This document shows, one piece after another, positions 20,333 to 41,729 of a stretch of DNA of 64,000 bases. Position numbers and translations under genes: made by a program. The stretch is from an uncultured virus (IMG/VR IMGVR_UViG_2811995097_000007). Its lineage: Duplodnaviria; Heunggongvirae; Uroviricota; Caudoviricetes. Position 1 is the stretch's first letter. Each line of letters opens with the position of its first letter. The notes beneath the pieces are model-generated. The model was given only the letters and a program-made list of their open reading frames with translations. It was not told the origin of the DNA and did not search any database. Location of the stretch: IMG/VR virus record IMGVR_UViG_2811995097_000007. The stretch is one strand, 5' to 3'.

Positions 20333-20587
20333 ATGGCTTTTCGAGTGTACTGCCCCATCTGCGAAGATGTCGCCGTGATCCACAGCTCCAACGCCGTGGA
20401 TCCGAAGCTGAAGGAAGCATACTGTTACTGCACCAACCAGGACTGCGGTCATAGCTTTGTCATGAGCATGGAATTTTCACACACGGTCAGCCCTTCGGCA
20501 CTGTCTCTCCCCCAGGATCTGCGAAAGCGGATCAGCGAAACCCAACCCGAACAGCAGGCATCACTTTTTGCCCATGCCGGTTCATAA
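20333..20587 (+). CDS. ogr: Ogr/Delta-like zinc-finger late activator
   Basis: CPIC...YCYCTNQDCGHSF....EFSHTVSPSA. Confidence 0.9.
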   Translation: MAFRVYCPICEDVAVIHSSNAVDPKLKEAYCYCTNQDCGHSFVMSMEFSHTVSPSALSLPQDLRKRISETQPEQQASLFAHAGS

Positions 20588-20599
20588 CCTCAAAAAACT

Positions 20600-20625
20600 A
20601 AGCCCCGACACGAATGCCGGGGCTT
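20600..20625. terminator. Intrinsic terminator, probably bidirectional
   Basis: AAGCCCCG...CGGGGCTT stem with an A-run on the left and GTTTG on the right. Confidence 0.7.
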
Positions 20626-20635
20626 GTTTGCAAGC

Positions 20636-20712
20636 GGAGTAGGCGAGGACGGAAAACGCGTCCCCACTGGCTCGATGCTGCCACATCGGACCACGACCGA
20701 AGCCGCTACTCC
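20636..20712 (-). ncRNA. Candidate 77-nt cloverleaf RNA divergent from dam
   Basis: Four-stem fold with a cUUCGg loop, upstream TTTACA-N17-TACCAC promoter-like motif, downstream terminator; homologue at 41177-41255. Confidence 0.55.
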
Positions 20713-20777
20713 TCCCCTTTATTCAAGGGTTTGAGCGTGGTAGCAGGCGAGGTCAAACCTGTAAAGGTGATAACACC

Positions 20778-21545
20778 ATGAAAAGTCCCCTGAAATGGGT
20801 CGGCGGTAAATCAAGACTGGCCGATCAGATCTGCAATCTCATTCCCGAACATAAGCATTATGCTGAAGCCTTTGCCGGTGCTGGCTGGGTATTCTTCCGC
20901 AAGGATCCCAGCAAATTTGAAAGTTTGAATGACATCAATGGCGACCTGGTCAGCTTCTATCGAGTCCTGCAAAATCATCTCGAGGAGTTCTGCAAACAAT
21001 TCAAATTCATCTTGTCATCAAGAGAAACCTTCTCAGAATTCAAGGAACAGATGGAGGCTGGTGGCTTGACCGATATTCAGCGTGCAGCAAGATTTTACTA
21101 TCTGCAGCGCCATTCTTTCGGCGGGAAAGTGACCGGGCGTAACTTCGGCGTCAACGTAAATGGATACCCGCCAATTAATTTGCTCCGTTTGGAGACAGAG
21201 CTTTCAGACGTTCATTTGCGACTGGCGCGTGTGACGGTCGAAAATCTGCCCTGGGCAAAATATATTACACGGTATGATCGTGAGGAAACTTTTTTCTATC
21301 TGGATCCACCGTACTATGGAACAGAGTTCTTTTACGGACGTGGCTTGTTCACCAAAAATGACTTTGTTGAACTCGCCGAAATACTGAGGGGAGTAAAAGG
21401 CAAGTTCCTACTATCCCTCAATGACTGCAAAGAAGTCCGGGATATCTTTGACGGATTCGATATCATCACAACAAAAACAAAATACACCGTCGGCGGCGGG
21501 AAAAAAATGAAAACGGCTGGCGAGGTTTTTATTAAAAACTATTAA
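20778..21545 (+). CDS. dam: DNA adenine methyltransferase (Dam/D12 class)
   Basis: LKWVGGKS, EAFAGAG, LNDIN, YLDPPY. Confidence 0.93.
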   Translation: MKSPLKWVGGKSRLADQICNLIPEHKHYAEAFAGAGWVFFRKDPSKFESLNDINGDLVSFYRVLQNHLEEFCKQFKFILSSRETFSEFKEQMEAGGLTDIQRAARFYYLQRHSFGGKVTGRNFGVNVNGYPPINLLRLETELSDVHLRLARVTVENLPWAKYITRYDREETFFYLDPPYYGTEFFYGRGLFTKNDFVELAEILRGVKGKFLLSLNDCKEVRDIFDGFDIITTKTKYTVGGGKKMKTAGEVFIKNY

Positions 21546-22700: not shown

Positions 22701-23510
22701 TTAACCCACTTTGCGGAAAAGGAGAAGGGGGGTTACGCCAATGGCTGATTTGGGACAACCTACAAGCTCATTAATACCAGAAGCTGCCTGGCTTAAGCCA
22801 GAAGCCATCTCATTTGTAAGAAACGCATTAGGGAGGGCCGGTTGTTCTTGATGGAGTTGATCGACAATGCCGAGCATAGACCACTTTCCTGTGAGGGTTG
22901 AGCCATACATTAAACTCATGGTTGCAGCTGAATCTCTAAGTTTTTGCTTGTCAATGATAGCCCATCCCTCAACATTGTTAGCGTCAACAATCATCTGAAC
23001 TTCCCAAGGTAGCATGTTTGCAATGGCTGAGAGTAAGATGGACCCTGTTTCGTTGGTTTTGTTGTGTTCCTTGAGGGCTTGCCTTCTTTGCTTCTTGGGT
23101 AAGTGCGAAAGATCTGGTGTGGAGGATCCGGCAAATGTAGGAATTAGGTCTACAAACTCCTTTCCCATTCCATAATCTACAAATGAGACCTTTCCCTCCA
23201 AAACGATAAAATTACCAACATCAATGTCTCCGCTGCCGTCCTTGATCAGTTCCATTTCGTGGAGTCCTGCAAGGACATCACTTAGAATAATGTCATGGGG
23301 AGAAATGTGCTGAGTCTTGGACTCAGCAACTGTTGTTCTATTCGAATGGGATAAATTCCCAATAGGATCGCCGCCAAGCTGACCGCTATTAGACTTTTCT
23401 TCCTCCTGACCATAGAGAGCCTCCATGGCATGAAGAAGCCCAGAGTTCATCTGGGCATAAAGTGACTGCATCCGGTCAAGGTCGATGTAAAGGAAATCAT
23501 ACAGAGTCAT
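22701..23510 (-). CDS. Hypothetical protein (DUF6414-like)
   Basis: LYDFLYID.DR..SLYAQ N-terminus and VTPLLLFRKV C-terminus; low GC. Confidence 0.65.
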   Translation of the reverse strand: MTLYDFLYIDLDRMQSLYAQMNSGLLHAMEALYGQEEEKSNSGQLGGDPIGNLSHSNRTTVAESKTQHISPHDIILSDVLAGLHEMELIKDGSGDIDVGNFIVLEGKVSFVDYGMGKEFVDLIPTFAGSSTPDLSHLPKKQRRQALKEHNKTNETGSILLSAIANMLPWEVQMIVDANNVEGWAIIDKQKLRDSAATMSLMYGSTLTGKWSMLGIVDQLHQEQPALPNAFLTNEMASGLSQAASGINELVGCPKSAIGVTPLLLFRKVG

Positions 23511-23709
23511 TGTTATACCGTCTTACTCCTTGATTGAGCTTGTGGGTAACTTTTTTGTGCAACTCTTTGAATCGGTTTGCTTGTCTTTCCATGTCTTCAA
23601 GCACCTGCTTCCTTGAACGTGCATAGGTCGCAACTGCACCATCATGCATGGAATTGTCCTGCTTTTGGCTACGGTGTTCTTCAGACATTGCTTTCTCCAC
23701 TTGATACAA
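23497..23709 (-). CDS. Small hypothetical protein overlapping the next gene
   Basis: Overlaps the start of the 269-aa gene; true start may be the second Met. Confidence 0.5.
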   Translation of the reverse strand: MYQVEKAMSEEHRSQKQDNSMHDGAVATYARSRKQVLEDMERQANRFKELHKKVTHKLNQGVRRYNNDSV

Positions 23710-23874
23710 GGTGGCTTAGAATATTTATCGTAACGGTAAATAGCAGTTCCGGTCAATGTGCTATGCGAATCTTCTATTCCATGTTTCGGGTCTGGTGTGA
23801 ATTGAAAATTAAAGAGTGTGTAAAAAATATGCACAGATATTGATGGGCTTCTCTGTCGTGTGTGTCATATATAT

Positions 23875-23936
23875 ATGAACGGCAGGAAGGTTATACAGAA
23901 AGAGTGTCAGGGGTCAAACTGAGGAAGGGGGGCTAG
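23875..23936 (+). pseudogene. Remnant of a hicA toxin gene (internal deletion)
   Basis: MNGRKVIQK in one frame and SGVKLRKGG* in another, directly upstream of hicB. Confidence 0.5.
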
Positions 23937-23994
23937 GCCCCCCGCCTCACTGCGTCCCCATTTATATATGACTCAAAAAATCAAGGAGAAAACC

Positions 23995-24402
23995 ATGGCA
24001 ACGTACTATGCAGCCCTGTTCCAGGAAGAAGATGGGAGCTTCTATGCCGAGTTCCCGGACCTGGACGGATGCATCACCCAGGCGGACAGCCTGGAGATGC
24101 TGGATCATATGTTGAAAGACGCCATGTTTGTATGGCTGGATGGTTGCAGGGAAGACGGAGAACCGATTCCGGCATCACGCACCTTTGAAGAAATACGCAA
24201 TGAAGTGGCTGGGCAGGAAGACTTTCATTCCGTCACCCTGGTGGTGATCCCGGAGAAGGTTAAGAGAGTGAGCAAGAACGTTCGATTCACTGAGCCGGAT
24301 CTGGAACTCATTGACCAGGCCGCAACCAAACACAATATGAACAGATCGGAATTCCTCGCCATGGCCGCAAAGAAGGTAGCCTCCGGCGCATGTGAACTGT
24401 AG
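23995..24402 (+). CDS. hicB: HicB family antitoxin
   Basis: YYAAL..EEDGSFYAEFPDLDGCITQAD...GEPIP; C-terminal RHH (IDQAA....NRSEFLA). Confidence 0.92.
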   Translation: MATYYAALFQEEDGSFYAEFPDLDGCITQADSLEMLDHMLKDAMFVWLDGCREDGEPIPASRTFEEIRNEVAGQEDFHSVTLVVIPEKVKRVSKNVRFTEPDLELIDQAATKHNMNRSEFLAMAAKKVASGACEL

Positions 24403-31256: not shown

Positions 31257-32516
31257 ATGGATCGTTGGTTGAAAATGGGTGCAGCATGCAAGGCTGCGAA
31301 TTGTCATCGGGATACCATGATGAAATGGATTCGCGATGGACATGTCGTTGCCGAGCAGCGCCCTGCAGGAAAGCGTATGGATTGGGTAATCCTGGAACGC
31401 TCTCTGAATAACCCCGCCAACGCTTTTGAAGTCGAAGTCCTCGCTCTCCTTGAGAAGGCGGGGCCATTGGTGGACGTTATGGCTATCAGCAAGAAGCCCT
31501 TCAAGGTCAGTGGAAAGGCCAGCTACTATTACAAGGTGGACAAGCGCCGTCTGTCGCTGGGAACGTCCAACTACTCCAAAGCCTGCCAGTCGCTTGGACG
31601 AATCAAGGACGCCTACATGGCCGGAAAACTCGACCACCTCTTAGGCGAATGTGGCATGACCCTGGGTGAGTTCAAGAAGGAATACGAACCATGGGCAGAG
31701 GAAACCCAACCGACCAAAACCTTCAAAGCTAATATGTTGGCGTTGAAGAAGGTCATAGAGATTGAGGGCGAAAGCCAGCGTCTTGACCGGCTGACCAAGA
31801 AAACCATGGATGAGCTGAAACGTCTGAAGCGCGAAAAGAAAGGGTCGGACGGAAAGCGGAAGCCATTGAAGGCAACAACGATCAACAACTATATCCGCCA
31901 CGCAAAGGCTGTTTTCAATAAGCCGGTGGATTGGGGATACCTGAAGGCCAATCCCTTCAGAGGTGCAAAGGAACTCCCAAAGGGCAAGCGGGTGGAATAC
32001 CTTAACCCTGACCAGGTCAAAAGCTTTATCAATGGGATCAAGGATATTGACGTTCGTCGCTTTGTTGCAGCGTGCCTAGCAATTGGTCGTCGCCGGTCGG
32101 AAGTATTTCGGCTGACTTGGGATGATATTTTGTGGGAGGAAAACAAGTATTACATCGCCAAAGAGAAACGACACTTATGCAAAACCTACCCCATGAATGA
32201 TCTTTTCAAAGCCGTGCTGAAGTCCATGCCCAAAGGCAAAGGGCGGATCTTCAACAGGTGGGCGCATGCGGACACATATACCCATAAAGTCAAATCGGCA
32301 TTGAGGGCGGCAGGTTTCGGCCATCTTAAACTTCACGATCTCCGGCATTCATTCTCTGTTGCTTTCCTTGAAGCCGGTGGCAGTCTCAAAGAATTGCAAG
32401 GCGCACTTGGTCACTCCGAATTCCGCGTCACTGCAGACACGTATGCACACATCACGGACGACGCCCTGGAAACTGCGGTTAACCAGGTTAAGTACGGTCC
32501 GGTCGATTTGTTTTAA
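31257..32516 (+). CDS. int: Tyrosine integrase with an in-frame N-terminal excisionase-like HTH
   Basis: GRRRSE, HDLRHSF, LGHS, TY catalytic motifs; first 74 aa resemble a MerR-type HTH; internal ATG at 31479. Confidence 0.92.
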   Translation: MDRWLKMGAACKAANCHRDTMMKWIRDGHVVAEQRPAGKRMDWVILERSLNNPANAFEVEVLALLEKAGPLVDVMAISKKPFKVSGKASYYYKVDKRRLSLGTSNYSKACQSLGRIKDAYMAGKLDHLLGECGMTLGEFKKEYEPWAEETQPTKTFKANMLALKKVIEIEGESQRLDRLTKKTMDELKRLKREKKGSDGKRKPLKATTINNYIRHAKAVFNKPVDWGYLKANPFRGAKELPKGKRVEYLNPDQVKSFINGIKDIDVRRFVAACLAIGRRRSEVFRLTWDDILWEENKYYIAKEKRHLCKTYPMNDLFKAVLKSMPKGKGRIFNRWAHADTYTHKVKSALRAAGFGHLKLHDLRHSFSVAFLEAGGSLKELQGALGHSEFRVTADTYAHITDDALETAVNQVKYGPVDLF

Positions 32517-33443: not shown

Positions 33444-34910
33444 TTGCGTCTCACACATGCCCAATACGACCCAGTGCATCATGCCCTGGGTGACATCCCT
33501 AGTCCTTTCCGCGATGCTGCCATGGCAGCTTTCAAGGAGCTATCTACAACTCTTATCCTGAACAATGGTGGACAGCTTTCGACCCACTCTCTGGACAGCA
33601 ATAATTTTGAGCCTGTCCACCAGTTGGCGAGCTTCCCGGTGGATTTCTCTTCATTCGATCAAAAAGAACGTCCTTGGGCTAAACGAGATTGGCTGCTTTC
33701 GGAGCTCCGAGAGTTGCGTTTGCAAGGCGTCAAGTGGCTCACTCTATCCCCTGAAAACATTTGGCTATGGCGTAGAGCATTCAGGCAGGCGGTTCGAAAA
33801 AACGAAGAGGTTGAAAACAGTGCTCATAATTCTTTTAGAGAGTTCAATTTTTCATCATGCGGAGCCGCTAAGTCTTGGGGATGGGAAGTGAGTTATGCTG
33901 ATGGTGATAGACGTTTATCAGCGTTTTCATGCGGAGAAACGGCATGTCCTGGCTGTTATGACAGAGACAAGGCACGAACTGCCCGCCGTTACCTCGACAG
34001 AATAAGTGCAGCGGCTTCCGCCCAAAAGATGGATCGGTTCTGGTCTTTCGTAATTACTCTGCCAGAGCAATACGAAGCAGACGTCCCAAAAGGATCAGAG
34101 AAGCGAAGACGCCTATTGCATGAGATCAAGAAGTTTGAACGCAAATTGTTTGGCTTCAAAACTGAAGATGGTCTTTTTGCTTTTGCTAGTGTTCATGCTG
34201 TTGGCGATTCCAATCTGATGCGTGACCGTTTTCATGTTCACAGCGGGGTGCTTCCTATTGCTGTTCGACGCATTAATAAACAGCCACAGATTATTAAGAG
34301 CCAAATCCAGGGAAAGATTGATGTTAAAGCGGCCCGCGAAGAACTAGCAAAGCACCTTAGAAGGGTTTTTCCTAGTATCGACAAAGAATCAATCCAGTTT
34401 AATGCAAAGTTCTATTCATTGAAAACTGAAAAGGACATTCGAAAGCTAGCTCATCGGCTAAAGTATGACCTTCGAGGGTTTGGCAAAGACATCGAAAAAT
34501 CGCCCATTTTCTTTGATCCCCAAAGTGGTCTGGCTGTTCTCAACGGCGGTAAAGATGACTACGGGGTTTATACCATATCTCAAGTTGCTTGGCGCTGGCG
34601 TTGGATTCGCAATCAGCGCGATCTCCGTTCATGGGGATTGCTCAACCAATGGAACAAATATGCTGAGCTACTTGGCGTTGAATTTGTAGAAGATCCTGAG
34701 CCAGAAGTAACAGATGAAACTCCTGTAACAGTCATACGTTCTTACGGCAGAGAGTGGGACAAAAAACGTGCACAAGTCAAATGGGTGGATATCAAAGTAG
34801 CATTTCGTGAGTCGGGCGAAGAAATCGAAAACATCGAATGGGGCCGAAAGGGATCTGAAGGCAACTGGAGGCCAATCTCTAAAACAAATAACCTAGGAGG
34901 AACAGGATGA
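33444..34910 (+). CDS. HUH-family rolling-circle Rep-like protein
   Basis: Cys cluster SCGETACPGC, motif I FVITLP, HUH RFHVHSG, candidate catalytic LKYDLR; GGAGG RBS before the TTG start. Confidence 0.7.
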   Translation: MRLTHAQYDPVHHALGDIPSPFRDAAMAAFKELSTTLILNNGGQLSTHSLDSNNFEPVHQLASFPVDFSSFDQKERPWAKRDWLLSELRELRLQGVKWLTLSPENIWLWRRAFRQAVRKNEEVENSAHNSFREFNFSSCGAAKSWGWEVSYADGDRRLSAFSCGETACPGCYDRDKARTARRYLDRISAAASAQKMDRFWSFVITLPEQYEADVPKGSEKRRRLLHEIKKFERKLFGFKTEDGLFAFASVHAVGDSNLMRDRFHVHSGVLPIAVRRINKQPQIIKSQIQGKIDVKAAREELAKHLRRVFPSIDKESIQFNAKFYSLKTEKDIRKLAHRLKYDLRGFGKDIEKSPIFFDPQSGLAVLNGGKDDYGVYTISQVAWRWRWIRNQRDLRSWGLLNQWNKYAELLGVEFVEDPEPEVTDETPVTVIRSYGREWDKKRAQVKWVDIKVAFRESGEEIENIEWGRKGSEGNWRPISKTNNLGGTG

Positions 34911-35758
34911 AAGAGACTTTCTTGATCACCATTTTGTTGATCCTCTTAGTGTTATATTTACCTCATTCGGTTTACGCGCTTGGCGTATCCGACCCCACTA
35001 GTCATATTTATTTAGCCGAACAAGTTTCTCAGCTGACTGAACAGCTCGAACAAATGGAAGCGCAGTTGAATGAAGCGGTAAAGGCAAATGAGACACTTAC
35101 CAAATCGTATGAAGCTGTGACCAGCACATATACGAAGTTCAATGGTGTCTATGACGACATCATGAAGACCAAAGCGTTTCTCAACGATTCCTACAATACG
35201 GTCTTGAACCAGTATGGCCATTACAAGGACCTATACGAGGAACTAGCCGATCCTGACAAAGGGGACATTGAAACCATCAAGGGGCTGCTTGAGGGCGTTT
35301 TCAGCGACCCTCGGACGATGTCCTCAGAGGAACGGCGTAAACAGGCAGAGCAAGCCTATCAGGTCCAGCAAGAAGCCTTGAAGAAAGCCATTGAGGATGG
35401 TGAACACACTTTGAACACCATGCCTGAAAGGGCTGAAAAACTGAAAGAGCTTGGTACAAAGGTAGGAAAGACTGCCGACACGAAAGAATCCCAAGCTCTC
35501 ACTAACACCCTCCTTCTGGAAATCTTGGAGGTTCTCCAGGAGCAGTTGGCTCTTACCCTTCGCTTTCAGCAAGCAATGGCTCTTCAGAGCTACTCTGGAA
35601 TAACCGAAGATAGCATCAAAATAAGGGCCGACGCCCTTAAGCATGTTGTTCTGCGAAAGGATGTCATTGGTAAGGAGCTTGCGAATTTACGACAAGCTGG
35701 AATGACCGACATGACGGATATCAAGTCACTCATCCATAACAATCTTGATCTCAAGTGA
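34907..35758 (+). CDS. VirB5/TrbJ-like T4SS protein
   Basis: Signal peptide, VSDP motif, long coiled coil, position before lipoprotein and VirB6. Confidence 0.7.
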   Translation: MKETFLITILLILLVLYLPHSVYALGVSDPTSHIYLAEQVSQLTEQLEQMEAQLNEAVKANETLTKSYEAVTSTYTKFNGVYDDIMKTKAFLNDSYNTVLNQYGHYKDLYEELADPDKGDIETIKGLLEGVFSDPRTMSSEERRKQAEQAYQVQQEALKKAIEDGEHTLNTMPERAEKLKELGTKVGKTADTKESQALTNTLLLEILEVLQEQLALTLRFQQAMALQSYSGITEDSIKIRADALKHVVLRKDVIGKELANLRQAGMTDMTDIKSLIHNNLDLK

Positions 35759-35765
35759 GGATTCA

Positions 35766-35999
35766 ATGCGACGCATCATAGTTTTGGTTTCTCTATTGTT
35801 TGCTTGCGCCTGCGTGCAGGAAGAAAGCGAGGTTTTAGTTCATCGTTCAAAGGAAGATCGCCAAGCTATTCATCAAGAAACGTTGAAGAACGAGAAAGAA
35901 GCGCTAGAGAGCATTGGTATCGATACCTCCAAGCCTGTGAACATCAAAGAGATGATGGAGAAGGCGCGAGAAGCATCAGCCAACAATAGAGGGGAGTAG
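35766..35999 (+). CDS. Small lipoprotein, putative entry exclusion (TrbK/Eex-like)
   Basis: MRRIIVLVSLLFAC lipobox-like signal; lies between virB5-like and virB6-like genes. Confidence 0.6.
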   Translation: MRRIIVLVSLLFACACVQEESEVLVHRSKEDRQAIHQETLKNEKEALESIGIDTSKPVNIKEMMEKAREASANNRGE

Positions 36000-36001
36000 A
36001 C

Positions 36002-37060
36002 ATGGAAGAATATGGAATATCTGCGGCAATATTTAACAATTTGCTTTTGATGAACACACAGTACATCGAGTCGATTTATAGCGATTTGATGAGATCATTC
36101 GGTGTATTCTTTAGGGCTATTTTCATTCTGTATACCGTATACATCGGATACAGTTGGTTTAATGCCAAAAGCCAAGTTTCAGTCTATGATCTTCTGATTT
36201 CATACCTCATCGTTGCAGGTGTTTATTCCTGTGTATTGGAACTATCATGGTTCTATGATGTTGTTATCGAGACAGCTATTGATCTGACATTGGACACTTC
36301 TTCATTCTTTATTTCTGCAACAAACAAACTGCCGTTTGGAGAATCAGCAAGCAACATTCACGAACTCTTTAAATATCTGGATGCAACAATCCTGGATTTT
36401 TACGGAGCGCTGGAGAATCTGGCTCCTAAAGGGAACTGGATAACCAATGCATGGCGATACGTCTGTTTTGCCTTGGCTATGCTACCTCTTTTTATGGTGT
36501 TTCTGGCAATGTATGCGGCATTTTTTGTTGTCTTCGGGATGGCTTTTTTTTCGATGTTCATTTTCTTCATCGTAGGTGGAATATGCATGCTGTTCGCGGC
36601 ATTTCCTGAGACACGTCATATTTTCTACACGTGGCTTCGAGGGCTTTTGAACTACATGCTGCTAGCCATGTTTGCATCTGTGATTATGGGCATATGTGGA
36701 AAGGGGATTAGCGAAGCCGTTGTAATGTTTGCCTCTCAAGTAGATACAGTTTCAGTTTACGTTTCGGACGCCTATCTCAAAATCCTCATTTGGTGTGCAT
36801 TTTGCCTAGCGATGATCCTCAAAGCCCCTGATTTTGCAGCTCACATGACGGGAACCATGGCTGGTTCAACAACCGGTATCGCTGGTGCAATGTCAGCAGG
36901 GGCTTCTGCCTTGGGTGGTGGCCTCTTTGCTGGCGGAAAGCTGGCCGGGGCAGCCACAGGCAAAGGCGCATGGGAAGCGGGCAAGTGGGGAGCTTCTGCA
37001 ATGGGTAGTGTGGGCCAAAGTGCTCTGCAGAGGCTAAAAGAATTACGCAACGCTAAATAG
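36002..37060 (+). CDS. VirB6/TrbL-like T4SS membrane protein
   Basis: Polytopic; F..TR.IF..W...LLNY, P.FAA..TG motifs; Gly/Ala-rich tail. Confidence 0.85.
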   Translation: MEEYGISAAIFNNLLLMNTQYIESIYSDLMRSFGVFFRAIFILYTVYIGYSWFNAKSQVSVYDLLISYLIVAGVYSCVLELSWFYDVVIETAIDLTLDTSSFFISATNKLPFGESASNIHELFKYLDATILDFYGALENLAPKGNWITNAWRYVCFALAMLPLFMVFLAMYAAFFVVFGMAFFSMFIFFIVGGICMLFAAFPETRHIFYTWLRGLLNYMLLAMFASVIMGICGKGISEAVVMFASQVDTVSVYVSDAYLKILIWCAFCLAMILKAPDFAAHMTGTMAGSTTGIAGAMSAGASALGGGLFAGGKLAGAATGKGAWEAGKWGASAMGSVGQSALQRLKELRNAK

Positions 37061-37069
37061 GAGGACAGC

Positions 37070-37273
37070 ATGAATGGGCAAGTGAAGGGCGTCTCGAAAG
37101 ACGAATTAGAAAAGAGACGCCAGGAACTCTGTGTGTGGAAGAAAAGATTCATTGAACGTCTAGCCAAAAAGCCATGGCCATCAAGACGTGACAGACGGGA
37201 GTTCAGTGCTCTTCGGCGGGCGATTAACTGTTACTGCAAACAGTCGGTAATATGCAAAGATGATCCTTCCTGA
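37070..37273 (+). CDS. Small basic hypothetical protein
   Basis: GGAGGA RBS; ends directly before the GGGACAC array. Confidence 0.55.
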   Translation: MNGQVKGVSKDELEKRRQELCVWKKRFIERLAKKPWPSRRDRREFSALRRAINCYCKQSVICKDDPS

Positions 37274-37282
37274 AAGCGAGGG

Positions 37283-37396
37283 GGGACACCACGCTCAATG
37301 GTGGGGACACCTGCGGTTAGGGCAGGGACACATCATAAATACCCAGGGGACACCTTGTTTTTTGTCAGGGACACATATGGCTTGGGCAAGGGACAC
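37283..37396 (+). repeat. Six GGGACAC direct repeats at 21-22 bp period
   Basis: Copies at 37283, 37304, 37325, 37347, 37368, 37390 with unrelated spacers. Confidence 0.9.
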
Positions 37397-37546
37397 CTTT
37401 TGTAAAAAATAGCCAGGTTTAGATATGGTTTTTCTTAAAAAGGTAATTATAACAGACGATTAGCATCAGTCTAAGAGGGATGGGGAAAGCGAAAAAGGCT
37501 GTGGAGTTGTGTTTTATATGCTTTACACACAGCCTTTTTCTTTGTG

Positions 37547-37575
37547 GCAGGATACGCACTTTTTAATAAAAGTGC
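37547..37575 (-). promoter_or_regulatory. oriT (RP4/MOBP-type nic site)
   Basis: Minus strand GTATCCTG^C matches the YATCCTG^Y nic consensus; adjacent inverted repeat GCACTTTT..AAAAGTGC; upstream of mobC. Confidence 0.75.
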
Positions 37576-37698
37576 TATTTGCTACCGCAAATCCTGACTT
37601 GTCAGCCGACAAGGGATGGGGGTGGCCCCCCTCACTGCCAAGGGCAGTTCACCCGCTTAGACCTTCCCTAAAGGGTCCCGGTTTGGAGGAATAAAAAG

Positions 37699-38052
37699 AT
37701 GACCAAGAAGCCGATTCTTACCTTTCAGGTGGAAGCAGAAGAAGAGGAAGCGATTAATCGCTACTTGAAAAAAAATGGAACCCCAAAGCGATCACCCTTT
37801 TTGAGGGAGGCTGTATTTGCATGGATCAACAGCGACCAACCGGAACTTAGAAAAGAAATCCACGAAGACTTAGAAGCATGGCGAAAGGAGTTCCACGGCG
37901 TTGGTTCCAATTTGAACCAAGTTGCCTACCGCATGAATGCAGATCACCCGCTTTCGTCGAAGCAGATCATCGAGACACTGGAGGAGCTCCAGGATCAGTT
38001 TGATAGATTGGCCACCAAGTTTTTGGAGTTAAGAAATGATCTCAAATTATGA
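37699..38052 (+). CDS. mobC: Relaxosome accessory protein MobC
   Basis: RHH N-terminus (RSPFLREA), VGSNLNQVAYRMN. Confidence 0.9.
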   Translation: MTKKPILTFQVEAEEEEAINRYLKKNGTPKRSPFLREAVFAWINSDQPELRKEIHEDLEAWRKEFHGVGSNLNQVAYRMNADHPLSSKQIIETLEELQDQFDRLATKFLELRNDLKL

Positions 38053-39286
38053 CCGTGAAGATGAATTTAAAATCAGAAGAGCAAAGCGGAGTAAAGCTGG
38101 ATCACTAAAACCAAGCATCAAGTTTCCCCGTAAAGGCGGGAAAGGGTTTAAACCGCAAGCAATGGTTAAGGTGGCAGGATGGGCAAATACTTCTTCTTCG
38201 GTAAAAAGGATGCTCGATTATATAAGTCGAACCAAGGAAAAGGAGACTGTAAAAGGAGTGGTAGCACTTGAAACTGAAATGGGAACTCAGAAACGTGGTG
38301 CATCAAAAATCACGGAACTTTATGATCAGTGGAAGGCCGACTTCAAACGTAAATCTAAGACAGCGACAAGAGCGCCACGTCATGCCGCACACCTTGTTTT
38401 TTCGGCATATGCGGAGTTGACTCCGCGCAATGTGGAAAAAACGCTCCTAGCGGCCCGTAGAACTCTTACCCGGCACATAGGAGACAAGGGGTATAAGTTT
38501 GCTCTTGGCGTCCACCAGGACGGAAAGTATCCGCATGTTCATGCGGTAGTGAAAACTGACAGCACGATCAAAAAGCAGCCTAAGTTGCGGCTTGGGCCAC
38601 AAGTGCTTTTTGAAATAAGAAAGACTCTGGCGAAAGAATTGACCAGGGAAGGTTTGACTCATGTGGCCACACGCGAGAAACGCAAAATGAGGCAAAGGCC
38701 ATCCAACTACAAAACCTCCGCACCGAACGTGCTTGAGCGTACAAAAAAAACAATTAGCAAACTCAAAAGAGAACACAGGCGGTTTGAGCGCGCCTTGAAG
38801 CGTGAGAGTCCAAGAATCAATGCCTTGAAGCATCGAGAACAGCAGTCCAAAGCGCTCGACACCCTACGTGCCCAGGTCAAGGAGGATAAGCTGTTGGCGG
38901 ATAAAGAACGGAAGGAAGCTTTCGATCTCATCCGTTCATTTCGGAGACACCTAGCAAGGAAAGGTGTTGATAAGAACTTAGAAACTAAGGCTACTCTGAG
39001 TGATTTGATATCCAGAATCGACAAATGGGAGAAGGATGTCATAATATTTCAAAGGGGTATAGCGAGGAAAGGCAACTCTTTCGGTCAAAATCTCAGTGAG
39101 AAAAATAACCGGGAGCAGCTTCATGAACGCGGTGGGAAGCTACTTCATCAAGTTGATAGTTTTGTGAGTCAGTTGAAACAACTTGATATGCCAGTTCACC
39201 GCAAAAAGGAGATATTTCGTGAATTGCGCGTCAAGTATCTGGGAGTGAAGAAAAGCAGGTCTCTTGCTTTGGAGCGTGGGCGCTGA
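38036..39286 (+). CDS. Relaxase, MOBP/VirD2-like
   Basis: QAMVKV...LDYISR, HLVFS, VHQDGKYPHVHAVV. Confidence 0.88.
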   Translation: MISNYDREDEFKIRRAKRSKAGSLKPSIKFPRKGGKGFKPQAMVKVAGWANTSSSVKRMLDYISRTKEKETVKGVVALETEMGTQKRGASKITELYDQWKADFKRKSKTATRAPRHAAHLVFSAYAELTPRNVEKTLLAARRTLTRHIGDKGYKFALGVHQDGKYPHVHAVVKTDSTIKKQPKLRLGPQVLFEIRKTLAKELTREGLTHVATREKRKMRQRPSNYKTSAPNVLERTKKTISKLKREHRRFERALKRESPRINALKHREQQSKALDTLRAQVKEDKLLADKERKEAFDLIRSFRRHLARKGVDKNLETKATLSDLISRIDKWEKDVIIFQRGIARKGNSFGQNLSEKNNREQLHERGGKLLHQVDSFVSQLKQLDMPVHRKKEIFRELRVKYLGVKKSRSLALERGR

Positions 39287-39354: not shown

Positions 39355-39936
39355 TTAGAAGCTAAGGTAAGATAAATAGGCAAAAGTACCCAACATTAGA
39401 AATGCAGTAATGTCACTTAGCCCTTCAAATTTGCTTAAGTACGGGAGTCGCATATAGCCAGTTTCTTTGTCGGATGGAACTGGAACAAATTTGGGGATAC
39501 CCATTGGTGTCATCGCATCAAGCAATAAATGTGAAGCCCACCCCAAGGCTAGCGGCTCTAGACCAATGAAGTACAGAATTATTGGGATTGGCCACCAATG
39601 GCTGATTGTTCTGTGTAAAGTCCACCAAGTTCGTTTGCTTTCAAACATCTCGTTGAACTCTCTATCAGAGAGCCACTCCCCTTTATCCTTTCTGTGCTGC
39701 AGATAAGTCCCACGCTTGTGGTTAGAAAGTAGCTTGTCAAAGCTGTCTGGCAGAATTCCTCCCACGGCAAGTAAAATAAACAATGTGAGGTCAGGAGGGA
39801 AGTTAGAAAGCCATGAGGCTGATGCATAGCAATACTCTCTAGTAAAAGGGCTTACCGTATTGGGATCACTGAAGATGTCGACAAGTGCTACAACATTTAG
39901 CGGGAAAAATACGTGGGCCACTTTATTCATAGGCAA
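39355..39936 (-). CDS. YdjM-like membrane metal-dependent hydrolase
   Basis: GGILPD, HRTISHW, GWASHLLLDAMTPMGIP. Confidence 0.85.
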   Translation of the reverse strand: MPMNKVAHVFFPLNVVALVDIFSDPNTVSPFTREYCYASASWLSNFPPDLTLFILLAVGGILPDSFDKLLSNHKRGTYLQHRKDKGEWLSDREFNEMFESKRTWWTLHRTISHWWPIPIILYFIGLEPLALGWASHLLLDAMTPMGIPKFVPVPSDKETGYMRLPYLSKFEGLSDITAFLMLGTFAYLSYLSF

Positions 39937-40206: not shown

Positions 40207-40956
40207 TTAGGTCGAGGTTGGACCGCAGCCCCAGGAGGTGAGTTCGCTGAGGCGGTTGGTTGCGATCTCGAAGTAGGCGTCCGACATTTCGATGCCGATG
40301 AACTTGCGGGCCGTCTCGAGACAAGCCTGGCCAGTGGAACCGGACCCCATGAACGGGTCCAGGATCGTGCCGCCCTCGGTTGCGATCTCCAGGAGGTTTC
40401 GCAGTAGCGGAACGGGCTTTTCGGTCATGTGTTTACGGGCAGCGCCGGACACGATGGACTGGCGGAATATGCCGGGCAAGCAGCGATCATGTACCCGCTC
40501 AAACTTCTCCTTGGAGCCTACCAGAACAAACTCGCATTGGTTCTTGAATTCACCTTTGCTGGGGCGGGCTGTGGGCTTGTCCCAGACGACGATCCGCCGC
40601 CACTGCCAGCCTCCGGCCTGGAGGGCGTCGCTCATGGTGGGGAGCTGCCGCCAGTCGGTGAACATCATGCACACCGATCCGGGCTTGGCCACTCTGTAGC
40701 ATTCAGCCAGCCAGAGAGTGGCCCAGGACATGAATGAGCGCTGGTCTCGGCTGTCTCCGCTGAAATCTGGGAATCGTTTCTTGGCGTTGGTGCTCTGGTA
40801 CTTGTCCGATGTAGCCCGCTGCTTTTGGCCGAGGCTCACGCCGCCGCTGGAATACGGCGGGTCGGTCAGGATCGCGTCAACGCTGCAATCTTCCAATGTG
40901 CCAAGGATACCCAGGGCCTCGCCCTGGTACACCTTGGCGTCTCCAATCTGTATCAC
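40207..40956 (-). CDS. Site-specific DNA methyltransferase (N4/N6, beta-class motif order)
   Basis: TDPPY precedes H.TEKP and LDPFMGSGSTG. Confidence 0.93.
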   Translation of the reverse strand: MIQIGDAKVYQGEALGILGTLEDCSVDAILTDPPYSSGGVSLGQKQRATSDKYQSTNAKKRFPDFSGDSRDQRSFMSWATLWLAECYRVAKPGSVCMMFTDWRQLPTMSDALQAGGWQWRRIVVWDKPTARPSKGEFKNQCEFVLVGSKEKFERVHDRCLPGIFRQSIVSGAARKHMTEKPVPLLRNLLEIATEGGTILDPFMGSGSTGQACLETARKFIGIEMSDAYFEIATNRLSELTSWGCGPTST

Positions 40957-40957
40957 T

Positions 40958-41113
40958 TCATTTCTCCGAGCGGTCCTCCTGGGACTCTCGGCTGGGACTC
41001 TTGGTCCTCAGATTGTTCATGGCCCGGCATTTGGGGCATTTAATGCTCAGTTCCCCTCTAATGTCTTCTTTTGCCAATAGGCGGTTACAGCGCCAACAGC
41101 GAAATTCCTTCAT
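40958..41113 (-). CDS. com: Com family zinc-finger regulator (51 aa, not in the ORF track)
   Basis: Read from sequence: MKEFRCWRCNRLLAKEDIRGELSIKCPKCRAMNNL...; directly upstream of the MTase. Confidence 0.88.
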   Translation of the reverse strand: MKEFRCWRCNRLLAKEDIRGELSIKCPKCRAMNNLRTKSPSRESQEDRSEK

Positions 41114-41176
41114 ATTGTACGTCTTTACAGTTGCGCCTTGCGCCTGCTACCTACCGTCCAGCCTGATCAGGTGAAT

Positions 41177-41255
41177 GGAGCAGCAAGCCCGGCTTGTGGC
41201 GCCGTGTTGCAGCACAGCGCCAGTGGGGGGCGTTGCCGCGCCCCCCGCCTGTTCC
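41177..41255 (+). ncRNA. Candidate 79-nt cloverleaf RNA divergent from com-MTase
   Basis: Same four-stem topology as 20636-20712; TTTACA promoter-like motif at 41124; hairpin at 41263-41290. Confidence 0.55.
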
Positions 41256-41333
41256 TCTTGAGCGGCCCGGCGGAGTGATCCGGCGGGCCGTGGTCTCTAT
41301 TAAAGCCTATTTAATTGTCAATGAACGAGGTGT

Positions 41334-41729
41334 TTATTCTGACATGGCGGGTTCTTCCGGCCAGACCACGGCTTTGGGGAAACCAGATTGCCGGGGGAGG
41401 TCTCGGAGGGCCTGTCGGTATGCTTGCCAGCGAACTATGTCCTGATCACCCAATTGGCAATCTTTTAGTTGAGTCCAATCAGTCTTAGCTAATTTTGCAT
41501 CTCTCTGCCCCCTTACTATTTTAGACAGTTCTTCATTGCTAGGAGCAGGTCTCTCAATGGCAATGGGATTGCCTTTATCGTCTGGAACGAGAATTTTCCC
41601 AGCCCCCTGCTCGGACATCAGTTCTGCATGTCGTTCAATGGATATCAAACCTTCGGCAGGTGTATAAGGTTTAGTCAGCGGAAAAAATCCAAGAACTTCT
41701 TTGTCGTATCGGTATCCGTAAATATTCAT
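41334..41729 (-). CDS. Tail fibre assembly chaperone
   Basis: RDAKLAKTDWTQL...YRQALRDLP.Q.GFP..V.WP. Confidence 0.88.
   Translation of the reverse strand: MNIYGYRYDKEVLGFFPLTKPYTPAEGLISIERHAELMSEQGAGKILVPDDKGNPIAIERPAPSNEELSKIVRGQRDAKLAKTDWTQLKDCQLGDQDIVRWQAYRQALRDLPRQSGFPKAVVWPEEPAMSE

Follow-up and report, generated by a model that had tools for sequence, protein, structure and literature searches.

Two RNA copies beside DNA-modification genes

We analyzed a 64,000-nucleotide (nt) stretch of DNA from an uncultured member of the Caudoviricetes (IMG/VR record IMGVR_UViG_2811995097_000007), here called the window, which holds two copies of a small RNA element that folds as a four-way junction. 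Each copy is divergent from a DNA-modification gene or from the regulatory gene that precedes one. Copy A lies in a P2-like prophage (bases 1 to 32,500) recognized by a P2-family capsid, GPO scaffold, small and large terminase, portal, and Toprim primase, with an integrase at 31257-32516. Copy B lies in a Mu-like prophage (bases 40,200 to 64,000, minus strand) with a Mu F-like protein, portal_3, and DUF2213. The two elements and their immediate neighbors are as follows.

20636..20712, minus strand: copy A, four-way junction RNA (77 nt); closing stem 20712-20706 with 20642-20636
20705-20694, 20693-20668, and 20665-20645, minus strand: copy A hairpins 1, 2, and 3, respectively, from the fold
20667-20666 and 20644-20643, minus strand: copy A linkers GT and GC, respectively, from sequence and fold
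20778..21545, plus strand: D12-class Dam DNA adenine methyltransferase (Pfam PF02086, E = 1.3e-35), divergent neighbor of copy A
20333..20587, plus strand: Ogr/Delta-type zinc finger of the P2-type late activator family (PF04606, E = 3.6e-15), convergent with copy A
41177..41255, plus strand: copy B, four-way junction RNA (79 nt), from the fold
40958..41113, minus strand: com, Mu Com-type zinc ribbon (PF10122, E = 2.9e-13), divergent neighbor of copy B
40207..40956, minus strand: N6/N4 DNA methyltransferase downstream of com (PF01555, E = 6.9e-33)

An earlier reading of the window (the original prediction) had given the minus-strand sequence of 20712-20636 exactly, and folding returns the 7-bp closing stem bearing three hairpins that it described. 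Copy A has a minimum free energy of -39.3 kcal/mol (z = -3.6), with 1 of 200 shuffled sequences equally stable, and copy B, which folds in the same way, reaches -52.2 kcal/mol (z = -4.3; 0 of 200 shuffles). Aligned with each other, the copies have 75% column identity over 238 columns and share the blocks CTTTACAG, CGCCTGCTACC, GCCAGT-GGGG, and CGCCTG. The further claim that the second copy keeps pairing stems and identical GT and GC linkers is thereby borne out by both the fold and the alignment. When the flanks are included in the fold, both copies gain a short 5' hairpin and a GC-rich 3' hairpin. The next gene downstream on the RNA strand is convergent in both cases, ogr for copy A and the tail assembly chaperone for copy B, and the fold is therefore not a leader on its own strand.

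Covariation, strand, and conserved core

Covariation among homologues, which the original prediction had proposed as a test of the RNA model, is present in two alignments. In a MAFFT alignment of 25 members, with the structure supplied, 96.5% of cells pair, compared with 42 to 62% when the partners are slid by 1 to 3 columns. Twelve pairs in this alignment carry double changes (65 cells), and none of 500 shuffles attained the observed values. In an alignment fitted to the covariance model (69 hits, 65 of them distinct), which leans toward the model, 97.3% of stem positions are paired, and double changes occur in 22 of the 29 base pairs (184 cells), a value that was likewise attained in 0 of 500 shuffles.

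Among the 65 distinct copies, 132 paired cells are G·U and 14 are A·C. Because G·U far exceeds A·C, it is the strand reading away from com or dam that folds. If the opposite strand were the functional one, the com/dam messenger, or a late transcript reading into it, would carry the fold as a structured 5' leader or as a processing site. The reverse complement of copy B does fold (-46.4 kcal/mol, z = -3.4, less stable than the -52.2 kcal/mol of the RNA strand), and a late gene often stops just a few bases from the junction without a terminator, which makes read-through into com plausible. On the com/dam strand, however, the 132 G·U positions become mismatches, copy A folds far worse (-27.8 compared with -39.3 kcal/mol), and the 43 com/dam leaders that we compared show no common fold or helix over the ribosome-binding site. 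We therefore consider a role for the opposite strand improbable.

Conservation is concentrated at the center of the fold. The linker GU is kept in all 65 distinct copies and the linker GC in 64 to 65 of them, and the bases that flank the junction are near-invariant, with loops and outer stem positions that vary. The invariant core consists of the G-C at the join of the closing stem and hairpin 1, GUGG, CA-GU-GGGG, and C-GC-CU. In a subgroup (L028, L036, L042, L048, L185, L186, L188, L190, L203, L207, L215, and L216), hairpin 1 is expanded by about 25 to 30 nt into an extra hairpin or a longer branched arm, flanked by AUCGAA or GUUAUCUCU and by GGGG.

The covarying, strand-specific four-way junction fold is a genuine RNA family. 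The covarying fold, the G·U excess on the strand originally named, and the convergent downstream genes all uphold, at the level of sequence comparison, the proposal of a stand-alone phage noncoding RNA.

Collection and prevalence of the family

The 65 distinct copies were gathered from viral contigs and from genomes labeled as Desulfovibrionaceae or Thermodesulfobacteriota. A first search pattern, drawn from both window copies, gave 7 viral-contig loci, and a second gave 49 loci. A covariance model, R1, was built from 25 distinct simple members. It scores copy A at 77.1 bits (E = 3.8e-15) and copy B at 77.3 bits (E = 3.4e-15), and on 51 sources it returned 39 matches of at least 51 bits, the remainder being chance or weaker reverse-strand matches.

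A pattern scan of genome contigs returned at least 120 stretches, mostly a conserved coding motif along with other chance matches. Among the genome-contig matches listed, 6 of 80 full loci passed R1, and their records are assigned to Desulfovibrionaceae, Pseudodesulfovibrio, Oleidesulfovibrio, or Thermodesulfobacteriota. The matches listed also include 40 short loci, of which L138 passed R1 and the other 39 were judged by eye only. The search pattern GCCAGTGGGG…CGCCTGYTCC also catches a coding stretch (…YNK…TETGAGQWGSALAFACS…) that is widespread across phyla (L057-L176), which is a trap for pattern scans.

The element occurs in 29 of 151 sampled genomes of one family, that of the Pseudodesulfovibrio genome G002 that carries locus L071, with 44 matches in total and at most 4 per genome; we infer this family to be the Desulfovibrionaceae. 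In a phylum-wide sample, 2 of 151 genomes were positive, both of them within the same family sample. A blastn search of both window copies against 50,697 phage records gave no match, and R1 and R2 found nothing significant in the cultured com/dam phages Mu, B3, Mana, RS-AB1, Mcat3, Smp131, VP882, PhiKM, Aval, phiE125, KS9, and TJ1.

Linkage to DNA-modification genes

Within 450 nt, the divergent neighbor is a Pfam-confirmed DNA-modification enzyme in 53 of the 65 distinct copies, and these enzymes fall into four unrelated classes. D12 Dam (17 copies) is always directly adjacent, and Com never stands ahead of D12 in this clade. The N6_N4 methylases (18 copies, one just below the cutoff), C5 methylases (9), and Mom (9) are all preceded by Com. 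Among the remaining 12 copies, a D12 N-terminal motif was read by eye in L018, L033, and L056. Com is followed by a modification-like gene fragment in L186 (below the N6_N4 cutoff) and in L048 and L130 (both by eye), and Com alone was found in L138, L190, and L211. The last three, L003, L212, and L216, had too little upstream sequence or were left out of the neighbor examination.

These counts support an element tied to the modification module and neither to an enzyme class nor to a phage lineage. In Mu-like and P2-like prophages of Desulfovibrionaceae-type hosts, it belongs regularly to the control region of that module, whether com-mom, com-methylase, or dam. The same link had been proposed from the window alone, where one copy sits in a P2-like and the other in a Mu-like prophage, and it extends to the wider collection. 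The original prediction had also placed copy B beside a different class of methyltransferase. An N6_N4 methylase is indeed present, but com lies between the two. At this end of the Mu-like prophage, the gene order is tail fiber genes, tail assembly chaperone (41334-41729), copy B, com, and N6_N4 methylase. Copy B lies between the tail fiber genes and com and therefore occupies the same slot as the mom control region of phage Mu.

Promoter-like boxes and palindromes in the control region

From the start codon of the divergent neighbor to the closing stem there are 62 to 68 bp, within which lie three conserved features. A CTTTAC box is found 7 to 12 bp from the start codon, and a TGnTA box follows 16 to 19 bp beyond it. 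The corresponding features of the two window copies, together with the hairpins that flank the junction, are as follows.

20737..20765, minus strand: copy A promoter-like box; TTTACA 20765-20760, 17-nt spacer with terminal TGC (20745-20743), TACCAC 20742-20737
20715..20729, minus strand: copy A 5' hairpin CCCTT-GAATA-AAGGG, just upstream of the junction (fold of 20588-20735)
20590..20625, minus strand: copy A intrinsic-terminator-like hairpin, 11 bp plus T-run, just past the ogr-like stop (terminator scan)
41124..41153, plus strand: copy B promoter-like box; TTTACA 41124-41129, 18-nt spacer with terminal TGC (41145-41147), TACCTA 41148-41153
41161..41172, plus strand: copy B 5' hairpin GCCTGATCAGGT, a 10-nt perfect palindrome CCTGATCAGG with a GATC center, plus a flanking G·U pair
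41262..41291, plus strand: copy B GC-rich hairpin 3' of the RNA with a weak T-tail (GGTCTCTAT), from the fold; not called by a stricter terminator scan

The arrangement TTTACA-N14-TGC-TACCAC originally reported upstream of copy A is present at 20765-20737. Between its TTTACA and the dam start codon of the opposite strand are 12 nt, and the TTTACA of copy B is 10 nt away from the com start codon, again on the opposite strand. A TGnTA box combined with a -35-like hexamer (at least 4 of 6 positions, 16- to 19-nt spacing, 15 to 40 nt before the closing stem) was found in 42 of the 64 copies with sufficient upstream sequence, the hexamers including TTTACA (20), TTTACG (9), TTTACT (5), and TTGACG (4). 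The -10 box ends 22 to 27 nt ahead of the junction, and the predicted start falls a few bases before the first hairpin.

This first hairpin is a perfect DNA palindrome of at least 10 nt, center included, in 39 of 64 copies, located within the 40 nt upstream of the closing stem; that of copy A is not a perfect palindrome and is an exception in the family. Twenty different palindromes occur, with the centers GATC (20), GCGC (9), GTAC (8), CGCG (1), and TGCA (1). Because an RNA hairpin needs no palindromic loop, the dyad is best read as the operator of a dimeric DNA-binding protein, which suggests a candidate operator superimposed on the 5' end of the RNA.

The same palindromes, which a dimeric DNA-binding protein requires and an RNA hairpin does not, could be taken together with the weak promoter evidence to mean that the entire element is a DNA feature, namely an operator cluster or cruciform in the control region with no RNA product. 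This is very unlikely. Compensatory changes preserve three further helices and the closing stem despite sequence drift, where operators would conserve sequence, and the asymmetry between G·U and A·C indicates one single strand. In addition, we know of no precedent for cruciform extrusion of a four-way multibranch.

Other features of the window

A conserved noncoding motif lies 3' of the copy B terminator region and has a perfect TTGACA on the com strand.

41305..41328, no strand assigned: conserved noncoding motif GCCTATTTAATTGTCAATGAAC (GCCTATTYRATTGTCAAAGAGC; 22 bp), 3' of the RNA terminator

A loose form of GCCTATTYRATTGTCAAAGAGC is present at 14 of the 65 copies. The motif TTGACAATYRAATAGGC was considered as a general late promoter and rejected, with only one good copy in the window.

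In the P2-like prophage, the Ogr/Delta gene (20333-20587) fills the slot after terminase and portal, which in the P2-like phage Smp131 is occupied by a Com-like regulator and then a methylase. Cargo beside dam (22701-24402) includes genes for a DUF6414 protein (22701-23510) and a HicB-like antitoxin (23968-24402). Between the prophages (33444-39286) are parts of a conjugative or mobilizable element, including a TrbL/VirB6-like gene (36002-37060) and a relaxase-like gene (38036-39286), beyond which lies a gene for a YdjM-like membrane protein (39355-39936).

Comparison with known RNAs

The whole window gave no match to Rfam 15 at gathering score. At E values up to 10, the copy A region (20450-20900) had rnk_pseudo as its sole notable match (35.9 bits against a cutoff of 55), mainly over the terminator, and the copy B region (41000-41450) gave only noise. 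ARAGORN found 0 tRNA genes in the window, and there was no Rfam tRNA or tmRNA match. The element also differs from a tRNA in its arms of 4 to 5, 10, and 7 bp and in having no spacer after the acceptor-like stem. The RNA was originally proposed to be undescribed, and the Rfam result, with the C4, c4-2, and tRNA models included, agrees. A literature search found no description of it in the sources within its reach, with subscription-only work on Desulfovibrio transcript mapping lying outside.

The C4 RNAs of P1 and P7 and the CI RNA of P4 are phage-encoded, tRNA-sized, multi-hairpin regulatory RNAs of immunity systems, and the original prediction had drawn a comparison with P1 C4 and P4 CI. That likeness is one of shape only, in a similar size and cloverleaf outline, and gained no support from this analysis. 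If the element belonged to this class, were a close analogue of it, or were a tRNA-like gene, RNase P would be expected to process it, and its targets would be complementary sites in an immunity operon. Neither 451-nt region matched C4, c4-2, c4-a1b1, or tRNA models at E values up to 10, and ARAGORN called no tRNA. The element sits in a modification module, beside late genes and outside the immunity region, its loops are unconserved, and no recurring complementary site of at least 9 nt was found in neighboring mRNA. We regard such a kinship as the most improbable of the explanations considered.

In P22 sar/ant and coliphage 186 pR/pL, a promoter that faces the transcription of the regulated gene yields a short structured RNA, and control is exerted by interference and/or pairing. 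Unlike these countertranscripts, the RNA described here leaves the ribosome-binding site uncovered. The countertranscript family ctRNA_pGA1 (RF00236) was not listed for either window copy at E values up to 10.

A similarly organized element lies divergent from Dam on the minus strands of the Burkholderia phages phiE125 (L219 556-672) and KS9 (L222 560-700), and divergent from Com-Dam in the Curvibacter phage TJ1 (L218 355-500). Like the present family, it begins with a perfect-palindrome first hairpin (GCCTACGTAGGC, CCTAGCTAGG) followed by a multibranch closed by GCAGGG...CCCUGUUU, and in phiE125 a good -10 (TAGAAT) lies 9 nt before the palindrome. It differs from the present family in branch number and core sequence. 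In 4 of 6 loci of the Burkholderia/Curvibacter type, R1 gave weak matches with the expected position and strand (E = 0.057 to 0.98), and R2 gave E values of 0.18 to 0.26. Against ctRNA_pGA1, the phiE125 element scores 38.4 bits, below the cutoff of 45. It is present in 27 Burkholderia phage records, in none of which is an RNA feature annotated under the match.

A possible RNA layer in the control of modification operons

The closest functional parallel is the com-mom region of Mu. As described in two papers (PMC3378877, PMC4287176), the promoters of Pmom form a divergent pair, of which RNA polymerase occupies momP2 as long as the activator C is absent and momP1 once C is present, and the modification gene is a toxic late function. 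As in that control region, the element described here combines an outward promoter, in this case predicted, packed against the operon with a dyad element, and copy B shares the terminal position in a Mu-like genome, between the tail fiber genes and com. The parallel is incomplete. With filters off, R1 and R2 found no detectable copy in Mu 34000-36717, where the best match (E = 0.66) falls inside mom, and no folded momP2 product is described in the accessible parts of PMC3378877 and PMC4287176. Furthermore, the covarying four-way junction serves four enzyme classes, with or without Com.

We propose, with a probability of roughly 0.55, that the element is a small structured RNA gene that restrains the neighboring modification operon, in an arrangement like that of momP1 and momP2 with an RNA product added. 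As read from its sequence features, the RNA would be transcribed outward from the boxed promoter, away from com-mom, com-methylase, or dam, and would measure about 100 nt from its predicted 5' end through the junction, or about 150 nt where a terminator follows. Because the -35 hexamer lies 7 to 12 bp from the start codon, the putative RNA promoter falls within the 5' untranslated DNA of the module, and because it lies there, the outward unit and the operon would have to compete.

In a lysogen or early in infection, RNA polymerase would occupy and fire the outward promoter and would compete or collide with transcription entering com or dam. The stable folded RNA may also pair with a late or read-through transcript that crosses it or may bind a protein through its conserved junction, and the net effect would be that a potentially toxic modification enzyme is kept off. 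Late in infection, a dimeric phage regulator acting on the dyad first hairpin would probably shut the RNA promoter and release the operon. The two units may be arranged back-to-back, as in Mu, or face-to-face, in which case a long leader, or transcripts running on from the tail operon, would be the antisense target of the RNA.

Several observations weigh against this proposal. Among the sequencing runs searched, no RNA run that contains the stretch was listed, and four metatranscriptomes carried almost none of its sequence words. A strict sigma-70 scan calls a promoter in neither window copy, and the -10 hexamers of the family mostly have no T at position 6, which is why the copy A promoter goes uncalled. 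CTTTAC is the complement of the neighbor's Shine-Dalgarno-like GTAAAG, and its conservation could reflect the ribosome-binding site and not a -35 box. A terminator with a U-run, part of the original prediction, is called for copy A (20625-20600) but is not a family feature; terminator-like hairpins occur in only 32 of 65 copies, and several of these are weak. In copies without a terminator, the upstream late gene stops within a few bases of the junction. Antisense overlap with the com/dam leader is an assumption, as the com/dam promoter is not located, and comparison of the RNA with com and methylase mRNA (-40 to +900) gave no recurring complementarity of at least 9 nt, with the sole exception of the 3' CGCCUGCU, which in a few loci can face GGUAGCAGGCG between -40 and -30. 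A plain antisense RNA, moreover, would not call for a junction core that is invariant and loops that are free to vary. The com phages Mu, B3, Mana, RS-AB1, Mcat3, and Smp131 are without the element, which is therefore not required for com-type control generally. Finally, part of the collection was made with patterns that fix the core motif, so that the apparent conservation of the core is inflated; GU and GC are also kept in 35 whole-genome loci found by the model, independently of the patterns. A candidate switch helix, in which the TGnTA box would pair with the 5' closing strand, was dropped: a mean of 4.7 closing-strand bases pair upstream, compared with 4.4 when the strand is shuffled.

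Some of these points would suit an RNA that is real but acts in trans, as a protein-binding RNA, as an anti-defense decoy carried in the same anti-restriction cassette as the enzyme, or as a sponge for a host or phage RNA-binding protein. Recognition sites of proteins or tertiary folds typically combine an invariant core with variable loops, as this junction does, there is no conserved complementarity to com or methylase mRNA, and the RNA is kept regardless of enzyme class and of the presence of Com. Anti-defense genes also cluster together. Co-location alone, however, leaves unexplained the tight coupling by which the promoter-like box always lies 7 to 12 bp from the neighbor's start codon. 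Moreover, no candidate partner emerged, and comparison with tRNA, Y RNA, CRISPR repeats, and the Rfam families revealed no resemblance. A trans-acting role is thus possible and is clearly less probable than restraint of the neighboring operon. In an equally tentative extension, the four-way junction may be more than a countertranscript, namely a dedicated sensor or adaptor RNA whose invariant core binds a specific protein or small ligand. With the dyad operator in its first hairpin, it would then serve as a portable licensing switch that phages can join to any modification enzyme, be it Dam, N6/N4, C5, or Mom.

Significance for phage DNA modification

Phage DNA-modification enzymes protect from restriction and are harmful if mistimed, and Mu mom is the textbook case of many-layered control. 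The classical picture of that control is protein-only, comprising C, OxyR/Dam, Fis, and Com. The element described here is a new RNA family in this known regulatory niche: a single conserved gene for an RNA is linked with modification enzymes of four unrelated classes, spans two or more phage lineages, and occurs in about one-fifth of the sampled genomes of one bacterial family. With its strong covariation and defined context, it is a clean candidate for an Rfam family and a marker for phage modification modules in metagenomes. If the restraint of the neighboring operon proposed above acts as a timing device, it would add an RNA layer to the protein-only picture of mom and would explain what the divergent promoter of the mom region, long a puzzle, produces and what it is for. 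The licensing switch, if true, would be a new class of RNA-based control over phage epigenetic self-protection, one that times anti-restriction modification.

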